Assembly: GCA_944383015.1 (NCBI GenBank)
Contig: CALWOC010000001.1
Location: 363,976-427,975, forward strand
Direction of reading: 5' to 3'
Origin: an uncultured Clostridia bacterium
GTDB lineage: Bacteria > Bacillota > Clostridia > TANB77 > CAG-465
DNA length: 64,000 bases
Both the position numbers and the translations under genes were made by a program. Shown here piece after piece: positions 3,290 through 38,096 of this stretch (position 1 is its first letter; each line of letters begins with the position of its first letter). A model generated the notes under the pieces. The model was given only the letters and a program-made list of their open reading frames with translations. It searched no databases and was not told where the DNA came from.

Positions 3290-3546
3290 AAAAAAGCACC
3301 TCTAGTTATTTCTAGAGGTGCTTTATGCACGGTACCACTCTAGTTGCCTATAAATTATATAGACCACTCATTTACCTGTAACGTAGGCTATACGTACTAT
3401 CATACTTTTACTTTAATAATTTCAGTTCTGATAGTCACTCCTGAGCTCTCTTCACATATCATCCACTGTTTGGCTCACACCACCCCAAATTCGCTTTAGC
3501 TTCATAATATACTACTCTCTCAATCAACGCTTTAATATTAACATGT
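3290..3546 (-). ncRNA. T-box riboswitch leader upstream of argG, including an intrinsic terminator at 3290-3321
   Basis: The minus-strand RNA carries a GAGAGAGUAGU Stem-I base and the T-box core AACUAGAGUGGUACCGUGC. The antiterminator is CUAGAG / UGGUACC bulge / GUGC-AUAAA-GCAC / CUCUAG. The mutually exclusive terminator is GCACCUCUAG-AAAUAA-CUAGAGGUGC followed by U6. Confidence 0.75.
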
Positions 3547-9913: not shown

Positions 9914-10046
9914 ATATCTTATCCAGAGTGACTGAGGGACAGGCCCTATGAAGTCCAGCAACCTGCAAAAATGTAAGGTGCTAATTCCTGCGGCATGACC
10001 GAAAGATAAGTTTTCTCGACTAGCTTGCCGTAGCTAGTCTTTTTTT
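9914..10046 (+). ncRNA. SAM-I (S-box) riboswitch with expression-platform terminator (10018-10046)
   Basis: UCUUAUCCAGAGUGACUGAGGGACAGGCCCUAUGAAGUCCAGCAACC...GGUGCUAAUUCCUGCGG...GAAAGAUAAG matches the S-box consensus blocks. The terminator GACTAGCTTGCCGTAGCTAGTC plus T7 follows. It is immediately upstream of metK. Confidence 0.85.
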
Positions 10047-10087
10047 ATACATGCCGATATTTTAATACTATGTTAGGGGGAATATTT

Positions 10088-11245
10088 ATGACAAATTACT
10101 TATTTACTTCTGAATCAGTTACAAGTGGTCACCCAGACAAAGTATGTGATTTTATTTCTGATTCAATACTTGATGCTGCTCTTAAAGAAGATGAGAATTC
10201 AAGAGTAGCATGCGAAACATCTATTTCAAAAGACACAATATTTATCTTTGGAGAAATATCTACAAAAGCAAACTTAGACTATGAAAAAATTGCTAAAGAT
10301 ACTCTAAAAAAAATAGGATATACAACAAAAGGAAGTGGCTTTGATGTAGATAATTGTAAAGTTATTATAGGTATACAAGAACAATCTAGTGATATTGCTC
10401 AAGGTGTAAATTCTTCGTATGATAACAGCAAAACTCTAGGAGCAGGCGATCAGGGAATAATGTTTGGATATGCATGTGATGAAACGGATGAACTAATGCC
10501 ACTACCAATATCACTTGCACACAAATTAGCAAAGAGGTTAGAAGAAACAAGAAATAAAAATATATTAGATTATTTAATGCCAGATGGTAAAACTCAAGTT
10601 ACTGTAGAATATAAAAATAATATACCAGAAAGAATTGATACAATTGTAGTTTCTACTCAACATAAAGATACTATATCTATAGAGAAACTAAGAAAAGATG
10701 TATATGAAAATATAATTTTACCTACAGTACCAAACACTATGCTTGATGATAAGACTAAAATATTTATAAATCCAACTGGTAGATTTGTTATTGGTGGTCC
10801 AGAGAGTGATAGTGGACTTACTGGTAGAAAAATCATAGTTGACACTTATGGTGGTTATGCTCGACATGGTGGCGGAGCTTTTAGTGGAAAAGATCCAACA
10901 AAAGTAGATAGAAGTGCTGCATATATGGCAAGATATGTAGCAAAAAATATTGTAAAAGCAAAACTTGCAAAAAAATGTGAAATTCAATTGTCTTATGCTA
11001 TTGGAGTATCAAAGCCAGTATCAATATATATAAATACATTTAACACCAATACTATACCTGAAGAAAAAATACTTAATATAATAAATACTTTATTTGATTT
11101 TACTCCAGAAGAAATTATTAAAACTTTAAATCTTCGTATGCCTATCTATTCTAATTTATCTCATTATGGTAATATTGGAAGAGAAGACTTAAATGTATCT
11201 TTTGAAAAAACAGATAAAGTTGATGAAATACTAAAATTAGTTTAA
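10088..11245 (+). CDS. metK: S-adenosylmethionine synthetase
   Basis: [18 protein letters not shown]..., [12 protein letters not shown] and [19 protein letters not shown] motifs. The start is at ATG 10088 after a GGGGGA RBS. The 10070 ATG has no RBS. Confidence 0.93.
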
Positions 11246-20704: not shown

Positions 20705-20973
20705 ATAATTAAATTAAATGCAAAGAACAAGAGGAGTAAGATAAAGGTTGTTTTTAGAGAGAAAGATTCATAGGCTGAAAGATCTTTTAAATAAACATAT
20801 CTGAAGGTAGCTTGGGAGCTGGTATACTGAAGTTTTATTATGTGTAAGTATACTCCGTTACAGTCGGTAAATCTGTTAATTAAGTGCATACAAATAGCTT
20901 GTATGAATTAAGGTGGTACCGCGAATCACAGTCATTCGTCCTTAAAATATTAAGGATTAATGACTGTTTTTTT
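20705..20973 (+). ncRNA. T-box riboswitch leader of the (small ORF)-valS operon
   Basis: Near-consensus T-box AATTAAGGTGGTACCGCG at 20916-20933, an AGAGAGA Stem-I element, and the terminator CAGTCATT...AATGACTG plus T7 at 20936-20973. The candidate specifier GUA (Val) lies in GAAGGUAGC at about 20803-20811. Confidence 0.85.
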
Positions 20974-21206: not shown

Positions 21207-23822
21207 ATGGAAAATAACTTTAATTATCAAAAAAGAGAAGAAGAAATATATAAAAATTGGGAAGAAAAAGGCTATTTTAAATGTGAGATAAAAGAAGGTC
21301 AAAAACCTTTTACTATATCAATGCCTCCTCCAAATGTAACTGCTAAGCTTCATATTGGTCACGCACTAGTAAATACAATTCAAGATATTTTTATACGTTA
21401 TCATAGACTAAAGGGAGAACCTACACTTTGGATTCCTGGTACAGACCATGCAAGTATAGCAACAGAAGTAAAAGTTGTTGAAAAAATAAAAAAAGAAGGT
21501 AAAACAAAACAAGAACTTGGTAGAGAAGGATTTTTAAAAGAAGCTTGGGAATGGAAAGAAAAATATGGAGGAGAAATAACAAAACAATTAAGAAAATTAG
21601 GCTGTTCTTGTGACTGGTCTAAAGAAAGATTTACAATGGATCAAGGATGTTCAGATGCAGTTTTAGAAGTATTTGAAAGAATGTATAACAAAGGGCTAAT
21701 ATATAAAGGAAAAAGAATTGTTAACTGGTGTCCTAATTGTAAAACTCCTATATCTGATATAGAAGTAGATTACGAAGAAGTCCCTTCTTCACTTTGGTAT
21801 ATTAAATACCCTATTGAAAATAGTGACGAGTATCTAACAGTTGCTACAACTAGACCTGAAACAATGCTTGGAGACACTGCTGTTGCAGTAGCACCAGATG
21901 ATGAAAGATATACAAAATATGTAGGTAAAAGAGTTTACTTACCAATAGTAGGAAAATATATACCTATCATTGCTGATAGATATGTTGAAAAAGAATTTGG
22001 AACTGGTGTTGTTAAAATGACTCCTGCACATGATCCAAATGACTATAAAGTTGGAGAAAGGCATAACTTAGATATAATTAATATCTTAAATGATGATGCA
22101 ACTTTAAATGAAAACGCTGGCGAATATCAAGGGTTAACTACTCTACAAGCAAGAGAAAAAATAGTTGATAGACTAGATAAAGAAGGATATTTAATAAAAA
22201 TTGAACCATATACTCACAATGTTGGTAGTTGTTATAGATGTCATACAACAATTGAACCTTATATTTCTAACCAATGGTTTGTTCATATGAAAGATTTAGT
22301 TAAGCCAGCAATTGAAGCTGTAAAAAATGATGAAACAATGTTCGTACCAAAAAGATTTGAAAAAATGTATTTTAACTGGATGGAAAACATTGAAGATTGG
22401 TGTATTTCAAGACAGCTATGGTGGGGACATAGAATTCCAGCATATTATTGTGATAAATGCAATAAAATCACAGTTTCAAAAACACCAATAACAACATGTG
22501 AATGCGGTGGACATCTAACACAAGATGAAGATACTTTAGATACATGGTTTTCATCTGCACTATGGCCATTTTCTATACTAGGCTGGCCACAAAAAACTAA
22601 GGAGCTAGAATACTTCTATCCTAACTCAATGCTTGTTACTGGATATGATATTATAACTTTCTGGGTATCAAAAATGATATTTTCTGGAATTGAATATATG
22701 GGAGAAGTTCCATTTAAACATGTATTTATAAATGGACTTGTTAGAGATGCTAAAGGAAGAAAAATGTCTAAATCTTTAGGAAATGGCGTAGATCCATTAG
22801 ATGTTATTAGAGATTACGGAACAGATTCTTTAAGATTATCTTTAATTCAAAATATAACACCAGGTAATGACGTAAGATATATTCCAGAAAAAGTTGAAGC
22901 ATCTAGAAATTTTGCAAATAAATTATGGAATGCTGCAAGATTTGCAAATAACTATTTAAAAGATCTATCTATAGATAAACCAGAAAATTTAATGCCTGAA
23001 GATAAATGGATTTTAACAAAACTTTCTAAAGCTATAAAGGATGTAGAAAGTAATATAGATAAATTTGAAATTGGTGTTGCTGTACAAATAATATATGATT
23101 TTATTTGGAATGATATATGTGATTGGTACATTGAAATGATAAAACCTAGATTATATAATCCAGATAATAAGACATATGAAACAGCTATTTGGACTTTAAA
23201 TTATGTGCTTATTTCTGCAACAAAACTACTTCATCCATATATGCCATTTATTACAGAAGAAGTATATTTAAATTTAAAACATGAAAAAGACTCAATAATG
23301 CTTGAATTACTACCAGAACCAATATACAACTATGAAGAAGAAGAAAAAGTAATCGATTGTATTAATAATATGATAAGACAAATACGTAATACTAGAGCGA
23401 CTATGGATATAACAGGATCTAAAAAAACTTCAGCTCAAATAAATATAAACGACAATTCATTTAAAAATATATTTGATGACTCAGTAGAATATTTCAAAAA
23501 GTTAGCATATATTGAGAATATTGAGTTTATAACTAATATTGAAGATGCTAATCCTAAATATTCTGCACATCATGATGAAAAAATAAATGTATTCTTAAAT
23601 ATGTCTAATGCAATAGATATTAATGCTGAAATTGAAAAATTAGAAAAAGAAAAACAAACAGCTTTATCTGAATTAAAAAGAGCTAATGGTATGCTGGCAA
23701 ATGAAAAATTCGTAAGCAAAGCTCCTGAAAAATTAATAGAAGCGGAAAAAGAGAAAGTTCAAAAATATACAGAATTACTTGAAAAAATTGAAGGCAGATT
23801 AAAAGAACTAACTAATAACTAA
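21207..23822 (+). CDS. valS: valyl-tRNA synthetase
   Basis: HIGH motif (PPNVTAKLHIGHAL), KMSKS, and the C-terminal coiled-coil of ValRS. 871 aa. Confidence 0.95.
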   Translation: MENNFNYQKREEEIYKNWEEKGYFKCEIKEGQKPFTISMPPPNVTAKLHIGHALVNTIQDIFIRYHRLKGEPTLWIPGTDHASIATEVKVVEKIKKEGKTKQELGREGFLKEAWEWKEKYGGEITKQLRKLGCSCDWSKERFTMDQGCSDAVLEVFERMYNKGLIYKGKRIVNWCPNCKTPISDIEVDYEEVPSSLWYIKYPIENSDEYLTVATTRPETMLGDTAVAVAPDDERYTKYVGKRVYLPIVGKYIPIIADRYVEKEFGTGVVKMTPAHDPNDYKVGERHNLDIINILNDDATLNENAGEYQGLTTLQAREKIVDRLDKEGYLIKIEPYTHNVGSCYRCHTTIEPYISNQWFVHMKDLVKPAIEAVKNDETMFVPKRFEKMYFNWMENIEDWCISRQLWWGHRIPAYYCDKCNKITVSKTPITTCECGGHLTQDEDTLDTWFSSALWPFSILGWPQKTKELEYFYPNSMLVTGYDIITFWVSKMIFSGIEYMGEVPFKHVFINGLVRDAKGRKMSKSLGNGVDPLDVIRDYGTDSLRLSLIQNITPGNDVRYIPEKVEASRNFANKLWNAARFANNYLKDLSIDKPENLMPEDKWILTKLSKAIKDVESNIDKFEIGVAVQIIYDFIWNDICDWYIEMIKPRLYNPDNKTYETAIWTLNYVLISATKLLHPYMPFITEEVYLNLKHEKDSIMLELLPEPIYNYEEEEKVIDCINNMIRQIRNTRATMDITGSKKTSAQININDNSFKNIFDDSVEYFKKLAYIENIEFITNIEDANPKYSAHHDEKINVFLNMSNAIDINAEIEKLEKEKQTALSELKRANGMLANEKFVSKAPEKLIEAEKEKVQKYTELLEKIEGRLKELTNN

Positions 23823-32026: not shown

Positions 32027-32527
32027 GTGAAATTTATGAAAATATTAAAGCATTTATATAAATATCTATGGATATATACTACAATATTACTATTAATTTT
32101 CATTGTAATTATAAAAATACTTGAAATGAATAATTTAGCATTTAGAATTTATATTCTAATTACAATGACCATAATAATTGTTATAGGATATATAATAAGC
32201 TTCATCAGGTTCTATAAGGAATCAAATAATGAAGTAAAATACAATGCAAATATAATCCTCGCACTACTTACAATATACTTAATATTTAATTGGAAAGGTC
32301 TACTATTACTATATTCTGCCAGAGTTCCTAATGAAGAAGAATATACATTAAATGAGAAAAGATACATTGTTCATACTGGTGGTTTTTTAACAGATACAGA
32401 AATAGTAATATATGAATATATAAATGATTTTGTATATAAGATACCAAGTTTATATACTGATTTTGTTAGCGGAGGTTACGATTCGATTTATAACATATAT
32501 AATTATGTACCTGATATTCCACAATAA
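32027..32527 (+). CDS. hypothetical membrane protein (166 aa)
   Basis: AGGGTGA RBS with two or three hydrophobic helices. Confidence 0.5.
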   Translation: MKFMKILKHLYKYLWIYTTILLLIFIVIIKILEMNNLAFRIYILITMTIIIVIGYIISFIRFYKESNNEVKYNANIILALLTIYLIFNWKGLLLLYSARVPNEEEYTLNEKRYIVHTGGFLTDTEIVIYEYINDFVYKIPSLYTDFVSGGYDSIYNIYNYVPDIPQ

Positions 32528-32581
32528 ATAATATTTCATTAAAGGAAATATATAAAATTAATGAACTTAGATAATTTCTAA

Positions 32582-32610
32582 TTGACAATACAAAAAAATT
32601 ATAGTATTAT
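32582..32610 (+). promoter_or_regulatory. sigma-A promoter for the ilv leader (TTGACA-17-TATTAT)
   Basis: Hexamers with a 17-nt spacer seen directly. Confidence 0.5.
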
Positions 32611-32643
32611 ATAGTCATTATAAATTGAAAGGAAGTAATTTAA

Positions 32644-32694
32644 ATGAAAAATATTAATGTAACTTTAAAACTAGTCGGACTACTACTTATTTAA
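32644..32694 (+). CDS. 16-aa branched-chain-amino-acid-rich leader peptide MKNINVTLKLVGLLLI
   Basis: AAAGGAAG RBS 8 nt before the ATG. Eight of the last 11 codons are Leu/Val/Ile (CTA GTC GGA CTA CTA CTT ATT), then TAA. Confidence 0.55.
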   Translation: MKNINVTLKLVGLLLI

Positions 32695-32810
32695 GCACTG
32701 GTATCTACTGTAGATACGAGTGCATTTGGTCGTACCTACAGTAGTCTTAAAGTTATATTATAATATAAAAGTATCTAAGACTATGTAGGTAAAACTACAT
32801 AGTCTTTTTT
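32695..32810 (+). promoter_or_regulatory. transcription attenuator with alternative hairpins and an intrinsic terminator (32776-32810) upstream of ilvBN
   Basis: Hairpin GCACTGGTATCTACTGTAGATACGAGTGC sits right at the leader stop. CTACAGTAG can pair with either CTACTGTAG or the terminator arm. The terminator is AAGACTATGTAG-GTAAAA-CTACATAGTCTT plus T6. No T-box core is present. Confidence 0.55.
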
Positions 32811-32852
32811 ATACTAAATTTTAATTTATATATAAATATGGAGGTGTTTAAA

Positions 32853-34589
32853 ATGTGGATAACAGGAGCTGAATTATTTGTAAAAGCTTTAAAAGAAGAA
32901 AATGTAGATACATTATTTGCATATCCAGGAGGTCAAGCAATAGACTTATTTGATGCATTATATGGACAAAAAGATATAAATGTAATATTACCAAGACATG
33001 AACAAGCGCTAGTTCATGAAGCTGATGGCTATGCAAGAGCTACAGGAAAGGTGGGCGTATGCTTAGTCACAAGTGGACCTGGTGCAACAAATCTTGTTAC
33101 TGGTGTTGCAACAGCAAACTATGACTCTGTACCACTTGTATGTTTTACTGGTCAAGTCCCAACATATCTTATTGGAAACGATGCTTTTCAAGAAGTAGAT
33201 ACTATAGGAATTATGCGTAGTATATGCAAATACGCTGTAACAGTAAGAAAAAGAGAAGACTTAGCAAGAATAATACACAATGCATTCTATATTGCAAAAA
33301 GTGGCAAACCAGGAGTTGTTGTAGTAGATATTCCTAAAGATATACAACTAGCTCTTGGTAGTGATGATTATCCAAAAGATATACATATTAGAGGATACAA
33401 TCCTAATACTTCAGTTCATATTGGTCAAGTAAATAAAGCAATGGAAATCTTATCTAAATCTAAAAAGCCTGTATTTTTAATAGGTGGAGGTGTAAATATT
33501 GCACATGCTAATGAAGAAATGACTAAACTTGCCGAAATTACGGGTATACCAGTTATTACAACAATAATGGGAAAAGGTGCTATCCCAACCACACATGAAC
33601 TATATATTGGAAATATTGGAATACATGGTAGCTATGCAGCAAATACTGCTATATCCAACTGTGATGTACTATTCTCAATTGGTACTAGATTTAATGATAG
33701 AATTACTGGAAAAATCGAAGAATTTGCAAAAAATGCAACAATAATTCATGTAGATATAGATCCTGCTGCAATTTCAAAAAATATTTCTGTTGATATTCCT
33801 ATTGTAGCAGATGCAAAAATTGCAATAGAAGCTATAATAAAAAAAGCTAAAAAATTAAATATAGAAGATTGGCAAAAAGAAATAAAATCATGGAAAGAAA
33901 ACTATCCAATAAAAATGTCATATGAGTCTAATATACTTACTCCTGAATATATAATAAAAACAATAAACAAAATGTATAAAAATGCTATTATTACTACTGA
34001 TGTTGGTCAAAACCAGCTTTGGACAACGCAGTTTATTGATATAGATAATAATAAAAGACTTCTTACTTCAGGTGGACTTGGAACTATGGGTTATGGACTT
34101 CCTGCTGCAATAGGTGCAAAAATTGCATGTCCAAATAAAGATGTTATATCTATCTCTGGAGATGGTGGAATTCAAATGAATATTCAAGAACTTGCAACAG
34201 CAATATGTCAGGAGCTACCTATTGTCGTATGTATATTAAATAATGGATATTTAGGAAACGTTAGACAATGGCAGGAAATGTTTTATAACAAACGTTACTC
34301 CTCTACTTGTTTAAAATACAGAAAATCTTGCGATAAAAATTGCAAAAATAAAGATAAATGTTGTCCTGAATATACACCTAATTTTATAAAACTTGCTGAA
34401 AGTTATGGCTGTCAAGCTATACGAGTTTATGAAAAGTCTGAGGTAGAAAAAGCTTTTAAAATTGCAAAGAAAAACAAAAAGTCACCAACAATAATAGAGT
34501 TTATTATTGACGACTCTTTAAATGTTTTACCTATGGTTCCACCAGGTAACCCACTTGAAGATATGATATTAGATAAGGAGGAAAATTAA
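32853..34589 (+). CDS. ilvB: acetolactate synthase large subunit
   Basis: TPP-enzyme motifs (GPGATNLVTG, GDGGIQMNIQELAT). The start is ATG 32853 after GGAGGTG. Confidence 0.9.
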   Translation: MWITGAELFVKALKEENVDTLFAYPGGQAIDLFDALYGQKDINVILPRHEQALVHEADGYARATGKVGVCLVTSGPGATNLVTGVATANYDSVPLVCFTGQVPTYLIGNDAFQEVDTIGIMRSICKYAVTVRKREDLARIIHNAFYIAKSGKPGVVVVDIPKDIQLALGSDDYPKDIHIRGYNPNTSVHIGQVNKAMEILSKSKKPVFLIGGGVNIAHANEEMTKLAEITGIPVITTIMGKGAIPTTHELYIGNIGIHGSYAANTAISNCDVLFSIGTRFNDRITGKIEEFAKNATIIHVDIDPAAISKNISVDIPIVADAKIAIEAIIKKAKKLNIEDWQKEIKSWKENYPIKMSYESNILTPEYIIKTINKMYKNAIITTDVGQNQLWTTQFIDIDNNKRLLTSGGLGTMGYGLPAAIGAKIACPNKDVISISGDGGIQMNIQELATAICQELPIVVCILNNGYLGNVRQWQEMFYNKRYSSTCLKYRKSCDKNCKNKDKCCPEYTPNFIKLAESYGCQAIRVYEKSEVEKAFKIAKKNKKSPTIIEFIIDDSLNVLPMVPPGNPLEDMILDKEEN

Positions 34590-34590
34590 T

Positions 34591-35091
34591 ATGAAAAAAA
34601 GATGGATAGGATTATTTGTAGAAAATGAAATAGGTGTACTTGCTAGAATATCAGGATTATTTTCCTCAAAATCATATAATATTGAAAGTTTAACTGTAGG
34701 TACAACTGAAGATCCAACAATATCACGTATGACAATTTCTATGATTTCAGATGATAAGACTTTTGAACAAATAAAAAAACAATTAAATAGAAGTGTAGAA
34801 GTAATAAAAGTTGTAGACTATACTAACGTACCAATTCACAATAAAGAACTACTATATATTAAGATTAATAATTGCTCTGAAAAAGACAGAATTGATATAT
34901 TTAGACTTTCAGATGTATACAAATTTAAAATAATAGATTACAATCAAAAATCAATTATAATTGAATGGGTTGCAATAGAATCTAATATAAACGAACTAAT
35001 TAAATTATTTAGTGCATTATTTCTAAATAGAATAGAGGTTGTTCGCGGAGGAAGTGTTGCTATTGAGTCTATAGGGATAGCAAATAAATAA
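34591..35091 (+). CDS. ilvN: acetolactate synthase small (regulatory) subunit
   Basis: N-terminal ACT domain (GVLARISGLFSSKSYNIESLTV). It is coupled to the ilvB stop. Confidence 0.88.
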   Translation: MKKRWIGLFVENEIGVLARISGLFSSKSYNIESLTVGTTEDPTISRMTISMISDDKTFEQIKKQLNRSVEVIKVVDYTNVPIHNKELLYIKINNCSEKDRIDIFRLSDVYKFKIIDYNQKSIIIEWVAIESNINELIKLFSALFLNRIEVVRGGSVAIESIGIANK

Positions 35092-35675: not shown

Positions 35676-36143
35676 TTATTCTAATAAAGTTATTCCTTCT
35701 CCATTACGCTCAAAATTAATTTTTCCATCTTCATAATATAATTTATATTCTTGAGTATGTTTCATATAACCTATATCATCTTGAATAATTTCTATTGATA
35801 TAGTATGAGTTTCCTCTAAATACTTCGTATATATAGTATATGTAATTTCCTTATCTTCATCTATTTTTTCAATATTTTTTAATTTTAAAGAATTTGATTC
35901 AGAAAATTCTTCATTTGTTATAATATTTTTTAAAGCTGATGTATCTAAAGATATATTCCCATCATTAGTATTTATTGTAGTTAATACATCTTTATATATA
36001 TTACTTAAAACAGCTATTTGAACATTCTCATTTTTAATTAATTTATCATAGTTATTAGTACCAAATATAAAAATCATAGCTAATACTAAAGCAATGATTA
36101 TAATTAAAATTATTATACTAATTGGAATCAGTTTTGATTTCAT
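35676..36143 (-). CDS. N-terminally membrane-anchored small protein, tandem paralog 1
   Basis: A TM helix followed by an about 120-aa domain. It shares LKNI/KNIEKI/GKINFE-type motifs with 36520-36963. Confidence 0.55.
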   Translation of the reverse strand: MKSKLIPISIIILIIIIALVLAMIFIFGTNNYDKLIKNENVQIAVLSNIYKDVLTTINTNDGNISLDTSALKNIITNEEFSESNSLKLKNIEKIDEDKEITYTIYTKYLEETHTISIEIIQDDIGYMKHTQEYKLYYEDGKINFERNGEGITLLE

Positions 36144-36519: not shown

Positions 36520-36963
36520 TTATGAAACTACTATTAGTCCATTGTCATATTTTTCATAATTAATTTTACCATTTTTAATTTTTAAAATATATTTTTGTTT
36601 TACCATATTTCCAAAATTGTCAGAAAGAACTAATTCTACGATTTTTTTTTCTGAATTATACTTCAATGACAATATATAATTCGATTCTGAATCGGCACGA
36701 TTTATTTCTATATTTCTTAATTTAAATATTGAACTATCATCAAAGTATTCTTTTGTGACTAAGTTTTTAATAGTTGAATCGTCTAATAAAATGTTAGAAT
36801 TTTTTATACTTGATTCCAAAATGAATTCTGTATACATCTTACTTAAAACTTCAACTTGATTTTGATTATTAATAAAAACTTTTTTATTTGAATTAAAAAT
36901 TAATAGTATAATTAAAAAGAATACTATTAAAATAGTTATAAAAACTATTATTATTTTTTTCAT
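36520..36963 (-). CDS. N-terminally membrane-anchored small protein, tandem paralog 2
   Basis: Same architecture and shared motifs (IKNLVTKEYF, NIEINR, GKINYEKYDNG). Confidence 0.55.
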   Translation of the reverse strand: MKKIIIVFITILIVFFLIILLIFNSNKKVFINNQNQVEVLSKMYTEFILESSIKNSNILLDDSTIKNLVTKEYFDDSSIFKLRNIEINRADSESNYILSLKYNSEKKIVELVLSDNFGNMVKQKYILKIKNGKINYEKYDNGLIVVS

Positions 36964-37214: not shown

Positions 37215-38096
37215 ATGAATAATAATCAATTAATAGAAAACTTTATAAAAGAAAACGATTTTGATAAAGGAATATTAGAAGATTCAAAAATTAATAGTAC
37301 AGAAGAAATAAGTTATGTCATAGACAAAAATGGATTTCATAAAAATCCTCAAAAAGAATACATTTGTATCGCAGATATAATAGGAGATAACATAAATGGA
37401 AATAAAACTAATAATCTTTTAAATGAATTACAATCATTATTTTCAGAAAATAAAGGAAATAAATATAATATAAGAAGCAATTCAATGTTAAAATACACAT
37501 CAGAAAACATTATACAAGGTTTAAGTGAAAGTTTTAATAAGGAGCCAATATCAATTGCTGAAGTGAAAAAGGATAAATATATAATAAAAAATAATGGAAG
37601 ACATAGATGCGCATTACTAAAAGCACACTATTTAAAGGAACTTTCAAAATGTAAAAACGAGGCTGATAAGCAGAATTTAAAATCAAAATATACTATACCT
37701 GCTGAAGTTGAAAGATTGGATGTTATTAAAACATATTCAAAATATTTATTAAAATTAGCTAAAAATAAATTTCATACTCAAGAAGAGTTAGACAAGAATT
37801 ATATAAGAACCGGAAAATTAATAATAACAGATGATAATGGTAATTCAAAAACATATTCTGACGAGGAGTTAGTTAAATATGTAAAAAGTATGGTTGATAA
37901 AATACCAGAAAATGAGTTAAAGAATACTATACCAAGATTATATTCTAAAGAAGAATATTTTAAAGAATATGCAGATACTAATTTAAGAGAAACATGTATT
38001 GAAAAATCAATTACAGAATGGTCCAAAATCAATTCTGAAGATAAAGAAAAAACAGTATATATATCTAGAGAAAGAGAGGTTAGAAATAATGACTAA
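37215..38096 (+). CDS. hypothetical protein (293 aa)
   Basis: ORF with no family I recognise. It overlaps the next gene by 8 nt. Confidence 0.55.
   Translation: MNNNQLIENFIKENDFDKGILEDSKINSTEEISYVIDKNGFHKNPQKEYICIADIIGDNINGNKTNNLLNELQSLFSENKGNKYNIRSNSMLKYTSENIIQGLSESFNKEPISIAEVKKDKYIIKNNGRHRCALLKAHYLKELSKCKNEADKQNLKSKYTIPAEVERLDVIKTYSKYLLKLAKNKFHTQEELDKNYIRTGKLIITDDNGNSKTYSDEELVKYVKSMVDKIPENELKNTIPRLYSKEEYFKEYADTNLRETCIEKSITEWSKINSEDKEKTVYISREREVRNND

Follow-up and report, generated by a model that had tools for sequence, protein, structure and literature searches.

The acetohydroxyacid synthase (AHAS) genes ilvB and ilvN of an uncultured gut Clostridia bacterium are preceded by a short leader that is probably a ribosome-mediated (leader-peptide) transcription attenuator sensing charged tRNA-Leu and tRNA-Val, a reading to which we assign a probability of roughly 80%. 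The leader lies in a contiguous stretch of 64 kb (64,000 nucleotides), hereafter the window, with a G+C content of 26.6%, and it most likely switches ilvBN on when leucine or valine runs short. Both amino acids are made from acetolactate, the product of AHAS. A preliminary description of this DNA had proposed a leader-peptide attenuator at this site, and our analyses of folding, covariation and related genomes support that proposal. All features that define leader-peptide attenuators and could be tested are present in the leader, which is a new sequence family.

Predicted leader peptide and alternative helices upstream of ilvB

Five strands of the leader transcript are predicted to interact: A, made of leader codons; B5' and B3', the arms of a hairpin; C, a pivot; and D and E, the two arms of a terminator. 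On the forward (+) strand, a promoter-like site is followed by a ribosome-binding site (RBS), the leader open reading frame (ORF), hairpin B, segment C, a spacer, the terminator, ilvB and ilvN, at these window positions:

32582-32610, + strand: promoter-like site of the sigma-70 type, TTGACA at 32582-87 and TATTAT at 32605-10 separated by a 17 nt spacer; 11/12 consensus matches
32628-32635, + strand: RBS of the leader ORF, AAAGGAAG, with the ATG 8 nt downstream
32644-32694, + strand: leader ORF, 16 codons plus TAA, encoding MKNINVTLKLVGLLLI; ATG at 32644, TAA at 32692-32694
32655-66 (A1) and 32677-84 (A2), + strand: segment A, within the ORF; pairs with C and is the predicted protector (anti-antiterminator) when ribosome-free
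32695-32723, + strand: hairpin B, GCACU-G-GUAUCUA-CUG-UAGAUAC-G-AGUGC; -15.7 kcal/mol; begins one base past the stop codon
32730-32760, + strand: segment C, the pivot strand; partners are B3', the leader codons (A1/A2) or D
32761-75, + strand: AU-rich spacer between C and D
32776-32791, + strand: segment D, the 5' arm of the terminator; its alternative pairing with C is the predicted antiterminator
32777-32810, + strand: intrinsic terminator D:E; 12-bp stem 32777-88:32795-806, loop GUAAAA, T6 at 32805-10; -16.9 kcal/mol
32853-34589, + strand: ilvB, with an RBS (GGAGGTG) at 32840-46
34591-35091, + strand: ilvN

All elements of the preliminary observation, a 16-codon ORF with a good RBS and a stop codon abutting a hairpin, were located in the sequence, with the ORF one base earlier than a naive count places it. 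Leu, Val and Ile make up 9/15 residues after the initiating Met, compared with 23.5% in 35 window ORFs (binomial P = 0.003, post hoc), and the peptide contains 5 Leu residues (P = 0.005). Its Leu codons are UUA, CUA (three times) and CUU, and its Val codons are GUA and GUC. CUA accounts for 10.7% of Leu codons and GUC for 2.3% of Val codons in the window ORFs, which makes both rare, and we propose sensing by codons 10-15 (L V G L L L).

We compared this ORF across ten distinct leaders from nine species-level genomes and one metagenome contig (L208), whose ilvB is 79-100% identical. Nine of these leaders form the alignment used below (alignment A1, not to be confused with helix A1), and L208 is the tenth. 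Their predicted peptides are:

Window: MKNINVTLKLVGLLLI
L002: MRNINVTLKLVGLLLI
L003 and L008: MKNINVTLKLVGLLLR
L004: MNNINITLIVGLLI
L006: MKNINKTLTVGLLI
L208: MKNVNKTLTVGLLI
L007: MKNINVTLNVLLLS
L009: MNKSNIVLVGLLR
L010: MNKSSIVLVGLLR

RBS, ATG, frame and stop position are retained in 10/10 leaders, and the ORFs are 16, 14 or 13 codons long, with all length differences being multiples of three (in-frame insertions or deletions only). The leader frame is the sole open one, as both other frames contain stops in all nine aligned leaders, and the spacer between the stop codon (TAA or TAG) and hairpin B is 0 nt in every one of the ten. The preliminary description had singled out for checking any orthologous region that keeps the terminator and has lost the ORF; no such region was found. 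Within the peptide, Leu8, the Val before G/L and the final Leu-Leu are invariant, while the Ile positions and the last residue vary, which points to Leu and Val as the amino acids probably sensed. In alignment A1, 7 orthologues share the RBS region GAAAGGAAGTAAT unchanged; GAAAGGAAGTAATT is found in L208 too, and L009 and L010 have AGAGGG instead. In the minimum-free-energy structure, the leader RBS is placed in a hairpin loop.

The TTGACA hexamer and a ..TATAGTATTAT.. stretch also occur upstream of the orthologous leaders. Promoter function at 32582-32610 is a prediction, as is a transcription start near 32617; the promoter scan as a whole showed no enrichment over shuffles. We found no CodY box near the promoter at up to 3 mismatches, and the window-wide count of such boxes was that expected by chance. 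The distance from the terminator T6 to the ilvB start is 42 nt. ilvB scores 738 bits with TIGR00118 against a cut-off of 538, identifying it as the large subunit of a biosynthetic-type AHAS, and ilvN matches the acetolactate synthase small-subunit model NF008864 (155 bits versus 119); the Pfam domains of both genes agree. ilvBN stands alone, with no further ilv or leu gene in the window.

The strands can form the following helices:

32655-66:32749-60: helix A1, leader codons with C
32677-84:32740-47: helix A2, leader codons with C
32695-99:32719-23 and 32701-07:32711-17: helix B, the lock hairpin
32705-13:32736-44 and 32715-19:32730-34: helix B3':C, 14 bp, the predicted anti-antiterminator
32735-40:32784-89 and 32742-49:32776-83: helix C:D, the predicted antiterminator, with G32741 bulged

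The 3' half and loop of hairpin B (32705-19) are complementary to segment C, and by inspection 32790-91 may add two pairs to C:D with 32733-34 (GGUA). Helices C:D, D:E, A:C and B3':C share strands and are mutually exclusive. The preliminary description had listed four segments, CTACTGTAG (32705-13, within B), CCTACAGTAGTCTTA (32735-49), TAAGACTATGTAGG (32776-89) and CTACATAGTCTT (32795-806, whose last two bases are the first two T of the T6 run), as able to form alternative structures. The pairings it implied, in which C binds either the hairpin-B loop or D, and D binds either C or E, proved real and conserved, and the helices between leader codons and C (A1 and A2) are an addition to its list.

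The leader is also unusually stable. Its 216 nt fold at -60.4 kcal/mol compared with -36.7 ± 4.0 in shuffles (z = -5.9; 0/200 shuffles as stable), and this minimum-free-energy structure includes helices A1 and A2. A terminator scan found the site described here against 0.0 expected in shuffles of the region. The computed energies of the states are -31.9 kcal/mol for B+CD, -34.7 for BC+DE and -47.1 for A1+A2+B+DE, and in this energy model the alternative states appear closely balanced and nearly isoenergetic.

Conservation and covariation of the helices

Segments A, B, C, D and E are 83-89% identical per column, compared with 51% in the C-D spacer. When each sequence was folded separately, all four helices (B, B3':C, C:D and D:E) were found in 10/10 leaders with matched stabilities:

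Helix B: -14.7 to -15.7 kcal/mol
Helix B3':C: -12.5 to -18.2 kcal/mol
Helix C:D: -12.4 to -16.6 kcal/mol
Helix D:E: -15.7 to -18.4 kcal/mol

RNAalifold, run on the nine distinct leaders, predicted A1, B3':C and D:E unprompted. The best-covarying helix is A1 (96.5% paired, 4 pairs changed on both sides); B3':C is 97.6% paired (3 such pairs), the terminator stem 97.2% (3 such pairs) and helix A2 94.7%. Taken as complete structures, A1+B3':C+D:E has 10 such pairs at 97.1% pairing and A1+A2+B+D:E has 9 at 94.8%, and in each case 0/500 shuffles did as well; registers slid along the alignment gave 26-52% for the first structure. Individual compensations are easily followed. In L006, the leader strand ACUUUAA and its partner UUAAAGU in C have become ACUCUAA and UUAGAGU, and in L009 and L010 two B3':C pairs have changed from C-G and A-U to U-A and G-C. 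A loop pair C:G is U:G in L004 and L006 and U:A in L007, and the stem of hairpin B in L009 and L010 has been rebuilt with other bases. Covariation thus argues for the terminated-state helices A:C, B3':C and D:E, and the predicted antiterminator rests on conserved complementarity rather than covariation.

Hairpin B of L009 and L010 seemed unpaired in alignment A1. This was rejected as an artefact of the alignment register, since folding of the individual sequences gives an equivalent hairpin.

Apart from the helices, the terminator loop and its flanks, GGUAAAACU (32788-32796; columns 180-188 of alignment A1), are invariant in 10/10 leaders. Hairpin loops usually drift, and the conserved AAAAC within this stretch is without explanation.

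Ribosome position, proposed mechanism and competing explanations

Folding with and without a ribosome footprint had been named in the preliminary description as a check, and we carried it out for the window and 8 orthologues by keeping positions -15 to +12 around the first base of the A-site codon single-stranded. Without a ribosome, the full leader transcript of the window folds into A:C, hairpin B and the terminator (terminator P = 0.98). Placing the A site on codons 9-13 (K L V G L) gives an antiterminator probability of 0.77-0.95. Once the A site has moved to codons 14-17, the stop among them, hairpin B opens, B3':C reaches 0.87-0.98 and the terminator 0.97, and A1 reforms behind the ribosome. 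We also folded transcripts of the nine leaders that end before E. In these, the antiterminator stands at ~0.94 when the A site is on the conserved Val/Leu codons, a plateau that extends to the last or second-last Leu codon, and it falls in 9/9 when the A site reaches the last or stop codon (to 0.00-0.02 in four leaders and 0.17-0.55 in five). The outcome follows classical attenuation logic and suggests that the position of the ribosome, on the regulatory codons or at the stop, selects the fold.

Full-length equilibrium folding as the sole model was rejected, because four orthologues never form the antiterminator in it; folding of the E-less transcripts is consistent.

We propose the following mechanism. 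Without a ribosome, or after its release, A would pair with C around an intact hairpin B, D would pair with E and transcription would terminate at T6. When Leu and Val are plentiful, the ribosome would reach the last or stop codon, where its leading edge would unwind hairpin B at its 5' arm; once released, B3' would capture C, D would again pair with E and transcription would terminate. When Leu or Val is scarce, the ribosome would stall on the conserved L-V-G-L-L codons, which include the rare CUA and GUC. It would then hide A while hairpin B stays closed, leaving D as the only partner for C; the C:D antiterminator would form before E is made, and polymerase would read through into ilvBN. The scheme would need the ORF to be translated, transcription and translation to be coupled, the helices to fold kinetically in this order and the response to be specific to these amino acids. 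A terminating ribosome would be kept off the antiterminator strand; it would instead work through a relay, melting the lock hairpin, which begins immediately after the stop codon, so that the released B3' could capture the pivot ~40 nt downstream, and pairing between the coding region and the pivot would make termination the default when no ribosome is present. Such a stop-abutting hairpin relay would be a modest architectural variation.

Several points weigh against attenuation by a leader peptide. The ORF also has an RNA pairing role, with which its conservation at the nucleotide level is confounded. The nine core pairs of C:D are invariant, leaving covariation neither for nor against the antiterminator, and for B+CD 60-148 of 500 shuffles reach the observed value on four of five measures (488 on the fifth, the count of further pair types). 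The 9-10 sequences are fairly close, and their kinship inflates the shuffle test. In full-length equilibrium folds, a stalled ribosome fails to turn L006, L008, L009 and L010 away from the terminator. This preference would be expected if the decision is kinetic, and it makes the model dependent on kinetic, co-transcriptional folding; the predicted read-through window depends on the footprint assumed. The organism is an uncultured metagenome-assembled genome (MAG), and both translation and read-through dependent on branched-chain amino acids (BCAAs) are predictions. Finally, close relatives (the L005/L201-207 subclade and L209, described below) manage without the element.

The best-surviving alternative, which we still consider unlikely, is a real attenuator that answers to some factor acting in trans and not to a translating ribosome; an RNA-binding protein, small RNA or small molecule could bind at hairpin B or segment C, and the short ORF would be incidental. 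Hairpin B and the loop GGUAAAACU are unusually conserved, the loop in 10/10 leaders, and the constraint of A:C pairing could in principle yield conservation of the ORF. In 10/10 leaders, however, the correctly spaced RBS, the ATG, in-frame indels, a sole open frame and a stop codon abutting hairpin B are kept, and the enrichment of BCAA codons fits the regulated pathway. Rfam yielded neither a riboswitch nor a protein-binding leader family at E <=10, and the leader has no multi-helix junction typical of aptamers.

Slightly less likely again is a leader peptide that senses general translation capacity (antibiotics or global slowing, as in the ermC or bmrCD leaders) rather than Leu and Val specifically. 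Any stall from about codon 2 to the last Leu codon favours the antiterminator in the E-less model, the peptide is very short and its Ile positions are not conserved. Against this, the regulated genes encode biosynthetic AHAS, not resistance; L8, V and LL(L) are conserved in all leaders; their rare CUA and GUC codons make the response as sensitive as possible to tRNA charging; and E. coli ilvBN is likewise under a BCAA-rich leader of 32 amino acids (aa) with 11 BCAA residues (PMC6123439).

That the leader is non-regulatory, a leaky constitutive terminator or an mRNA-stability structure whose pairings arose by chance from repeated sequence, is improbable. It would suit the close relatives in which ilvBN stands behind a plain promoter without the element, yet ten leaders have four mutually exclusive helices of matched stability, against only 51% identity in the spacer, with compensatory changes in three helices and a folding z-score of -5.9.

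A diverged T-box or other known riboswitch, suggested by the T-boxes at the same position before ilvB in more distant Clostridia, is the least probable of all, as the T-box model RF00230 (gathering threshold 93 bits) gave no match at threshold or at E <=10 on 32450-32900 compared with 118 and 130 bits for the two T-boxes elsewhere in the window, the core sequence is absent, and the ~190 nt from transcript start to terminator, 51 nt of which are ORF, offer no space for Stem I, a specifier loop and the other parts of a T-box. At gathering thresholds, Rfam placed no family at the ilvB leader; a permissive scan of 32450-32900 (E <=10) gave a best E of 1.9, from unrelated families that covered the terminator hairpin only; and a regular-expression search of 32528-32852 found no GGTGG.ACC-type T-box core. 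The window's own T-boxes served as controls in the same scan (129.7 and 117.7 bits). The preliminary claim that the leader is not a T-box is borne out by these results.

Comparison with known systems, relatives and neighbouring elements

The leader-peptide attenuator proposed here has parallels in several known systems. E. coli ilvBN, with its leader ivbL, encodes the same enzyme, the large and small subunits of AHAS. Its leader gives a bivalent response to Leu and Val, and the codons conserved here are also those for Leu and Val. In the Salmonella and E. coli his leader, ribosome position shifts the register in a chain of mutually exclusive hairpins, so that either the terminator or the preceding pair forms. 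The likeness to the his leader lies in this cascade of alternative hairpins; that leader differs in amino acid, length and sequence, and the one described here has an odd number of strands (B5', B3', C, D, E) and a pairing between the coding region and C. A T-box, in turn, senses uncharged tRNA directly through RNA-RNA contacts. T-boxes (RF00230) before ilvB in other Clostridia have the same position and the same purpose, amino-acid-responsive antitermination; the leader here is without T-box features and has instead an ORF that is predicted to be translated.

Ribosome-mediated attenuation of BCAA operons is textbook knowledge in enterobacteria, including ilvBN (PMC6123439). E. coli ilvBN follows the same logic as the leader here, with a BCAA-rich short ORF and protector, antiterminator and terminator structures before ilvB (PMC6123439; PMC344613, as cited in PMC10272879). 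The two leaders differ in size (32 aa with 11 BCAA residues versus 13-16 aa here) and belong to different phyla, and we detected no sequence or covariance-model similarity to an E. coli-type leader in the one described here. They would also differ in how the ribosome acts: the stop codon here lies ~40 nt upstream of the pivot and a hairpin would relay the arrival of the ribosome, whereas in E. coli the ribosome covers the next strand.

Among Gram-positive bacteria, ribosome-mediated attenuation of ilv/leu genes has been demonstrated experimentally in the Bacillota Staphylococcus aureus and Listeria monocytogenes (PMC5794164, PMC6123439), and BCAA attenuators have been predicted in Lactococcus lactis, Streptococcus and Corynebacterium (PMC5794164, PMC6123439, PMC10272879). 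The S. aureus ilvD leader and the Listeria ilv-leu leader have a Leu-rich short ORF with a terminator and antiterminator in place of a B. subtilis-type T-box (PMC5794164, PMC6123439). These species are Bacilli, not Clostridia, the S. aureus peptide has 26 aa, and both leaders serve a whole ilv-leu operon in combination with CodY; we liken them to the leader here by mechanism and published description, not by sequence. The L. lactis leu-ilv leader, a predicted BCAA leader-peptide attenuator of a low-GC Gram-positive bacterium (cited in PMC5794164), resembles the present leader in mechanism only. Structured ilvB leaders known as the ilvB-OMG, ilvB and ilvB-II motifs (Breaker laboratory), with upstream ORFs rich in BCAA and Thr codons, have been reinterpreted as attenuators (PMC10272879). 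These come from other lineages (Corynebacterium, Leptospira and mixed phyla), none matches the leader here, and the diagnostic strings of our leader are absent from the supplementary alignments of PMC10272879. Two further reports concern Firmicutes: predictions of attenuators with His leader peptides exist for the C. difficile group and further Firmicutes without T-box or HisR control (PMC9413887), and T-boxes have been replaced by regular leader peptides (PMC2965389). In the literature searched, we found no description of a BCAA leader peptide in Clostridia. The preliminary description had called such an attenuator noteworthy in a Clostridium-like genome, which overstates the case, given that documented examples of such control over ilv/leu genes in Bacillota already exist (PMC5794164, PMC6123439).

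We next consider the relatives. An ilvB protein scan with one genome per species gave 80 loci. The leader was present in L001 (ilvB 99% identical; same species, an uncultured Clostridia MAG), in L002-L004 and in L006-L010 (79-94%), and a further ilvB protein search with ten contig look-ups added one, L208. With an nhmmer profile of the leader, no additional copy turned up in the window or in 200 loci (L001-L200), including upstream of genes other than ilvB. A metagenome search with the pattern CCTACARTAGN{28,58}GGTAAAACT proved too permissive, matching at least 120 stretches; among the matches listed, 3 were real leaders (L083, L158 and L194), all identical to known types.

Seven more distant loci carry a T-box above the Rfam threshold before ilvB (107-124 bits): L017 ([Clostridium] fimetarium), L018, L021, L022, L023, L030 and L031. 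L013 has the T-box core string and was sub-threshold in the covariance-model scan, and orthologues with a T-box carry AGGTGGTACCACGG or the AACACGG variant. These T-boxes at the same place mark the site as a usual point of amino-acid-responsive attenuation. The preliminary statement that branched-chain operons are normally T-box controlled holds for ilvB in these more distant Clostridia; other relatives have neither T-box nor leader. One such group is the subclade of L005 and L201-L207 (ilvB 86-88% identical to the window), in which the leader ORF, hairpin B and terminator are all missing and a plain promoter, TTTATGATATAAT..CGACAAAA, lies ~70-110 nt upstream of ilvB in common. Since ilvBN is kept there, the attenuator appears to have been lost or replaced. 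L209/L210 and L211-L214 are also without the leader.

In a neighbour-joining tree of ilvB, all leader-bearing lineages fall into one clade that also holds the leader-less L005 subclade and L209. This pattern is most simply explained if the leader arose once, at the clade's base, and was lost at least twice. On a broader reading, which is tentative and which we rate below even odds, this is a clade-restricted attenuator of one gut Clostridia lineage, at a gene preceded by a T-box in more distant Clostridia, lost at least twice and working through a relay undescribed for classical attenuators.

For the class Clostridia, the leader offers a clean, comparatively supported case of classical ribosome-mediated attenuation; the gene concerned has a T-box in more distant members. 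Within a narrow group of gut bacteria, ilvB has a leader peptide, a T-box, a palindromic site (see below) or a plain promoter, which shows how fast sensing modules are swapped at a single regulatory position. With ~190 nt and a peptide of 13-16 codons, the leader could serve as a compact model or synthetic-biology part for sensing Leu and Val in low-GC anaerobes, and its annotation would keep the short ORF and terminator from being misread in MAGs. The understanding of attenuation itself is unchanged, and the element is mechanistically expected.

Other features were seen at the ilvB loci. In the L005/L201-L207 subclade, the promoter has an extended -10 element, TTT(A/G)TGATATAAT, followed by CGACAAAA, and the upstream genes differ among members. 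L009 (~2750-2795) and L010, at the equivalent position, are the only two of the ten leaders in which a terminator-like hairpin, AAAACAACTCAAATAAAACTGAGTTGTTTTTTT, separates the conserved promoter (TTGACA at 2724) from the leader RBS (2802). It may represent a second terminator, an inserted element or a stabiliser of the 5' end. A conserved palindrome, for example ATGCAAGCAAGTACATGCAT, stands just before the ilvB RBS in L011, L015, L016, L019, L024-L027, L032 and L034, which belong to Lachnospiraceae, Acetobacterium and related groups. It lies ~20-50 nt upstream of ilvB (locus ~2950-2990), preceded by a same-strand gene whose product ends in ...FGYTFLKASFG... and by a terminator hairpin, and it may be an operator or small hairpin and, as such, a third regulatory solution. 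In L209 and L210 (ilvB 79% identical, at 1001), ilvB starts ~50 nt after a gene with AA_kinase and acetyltransferase domains (1-948, argB/argA-like), which suggests that it is co-transcribed with an arginine-pathway gene. Protein P0090, of 770 aa and 74% identical to ilvB, combines the domains of thiamine pyrophosphate-dependent enzymes with the small-subunit ACT and ALS_ss_C domains and is either a fused large and small AHAS subunit or a gene call reading through a lost stop codon.

Around ilvBN, the ORFs at 32027-32527 (+), 35676-36143 (-), 36520-36963 (-) and 37215-38096 (+) matched no Pfam family, nor any NCBIfam family where tested. Elsewhere in the window, three known RNA elements were found:

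3311-3536, - strand: T-box before argG-argH (3141-544, minus strand)
9916-10012, + strand: S-adenosylmethionine (SAM) riboswitch before metK (10070-11245)
20714-20946, + strand: T-box before valS (21207-23822)

T-boxes are found less often on an arginine biosynthesis operon such as argGH than on tRNA synthetase genes.

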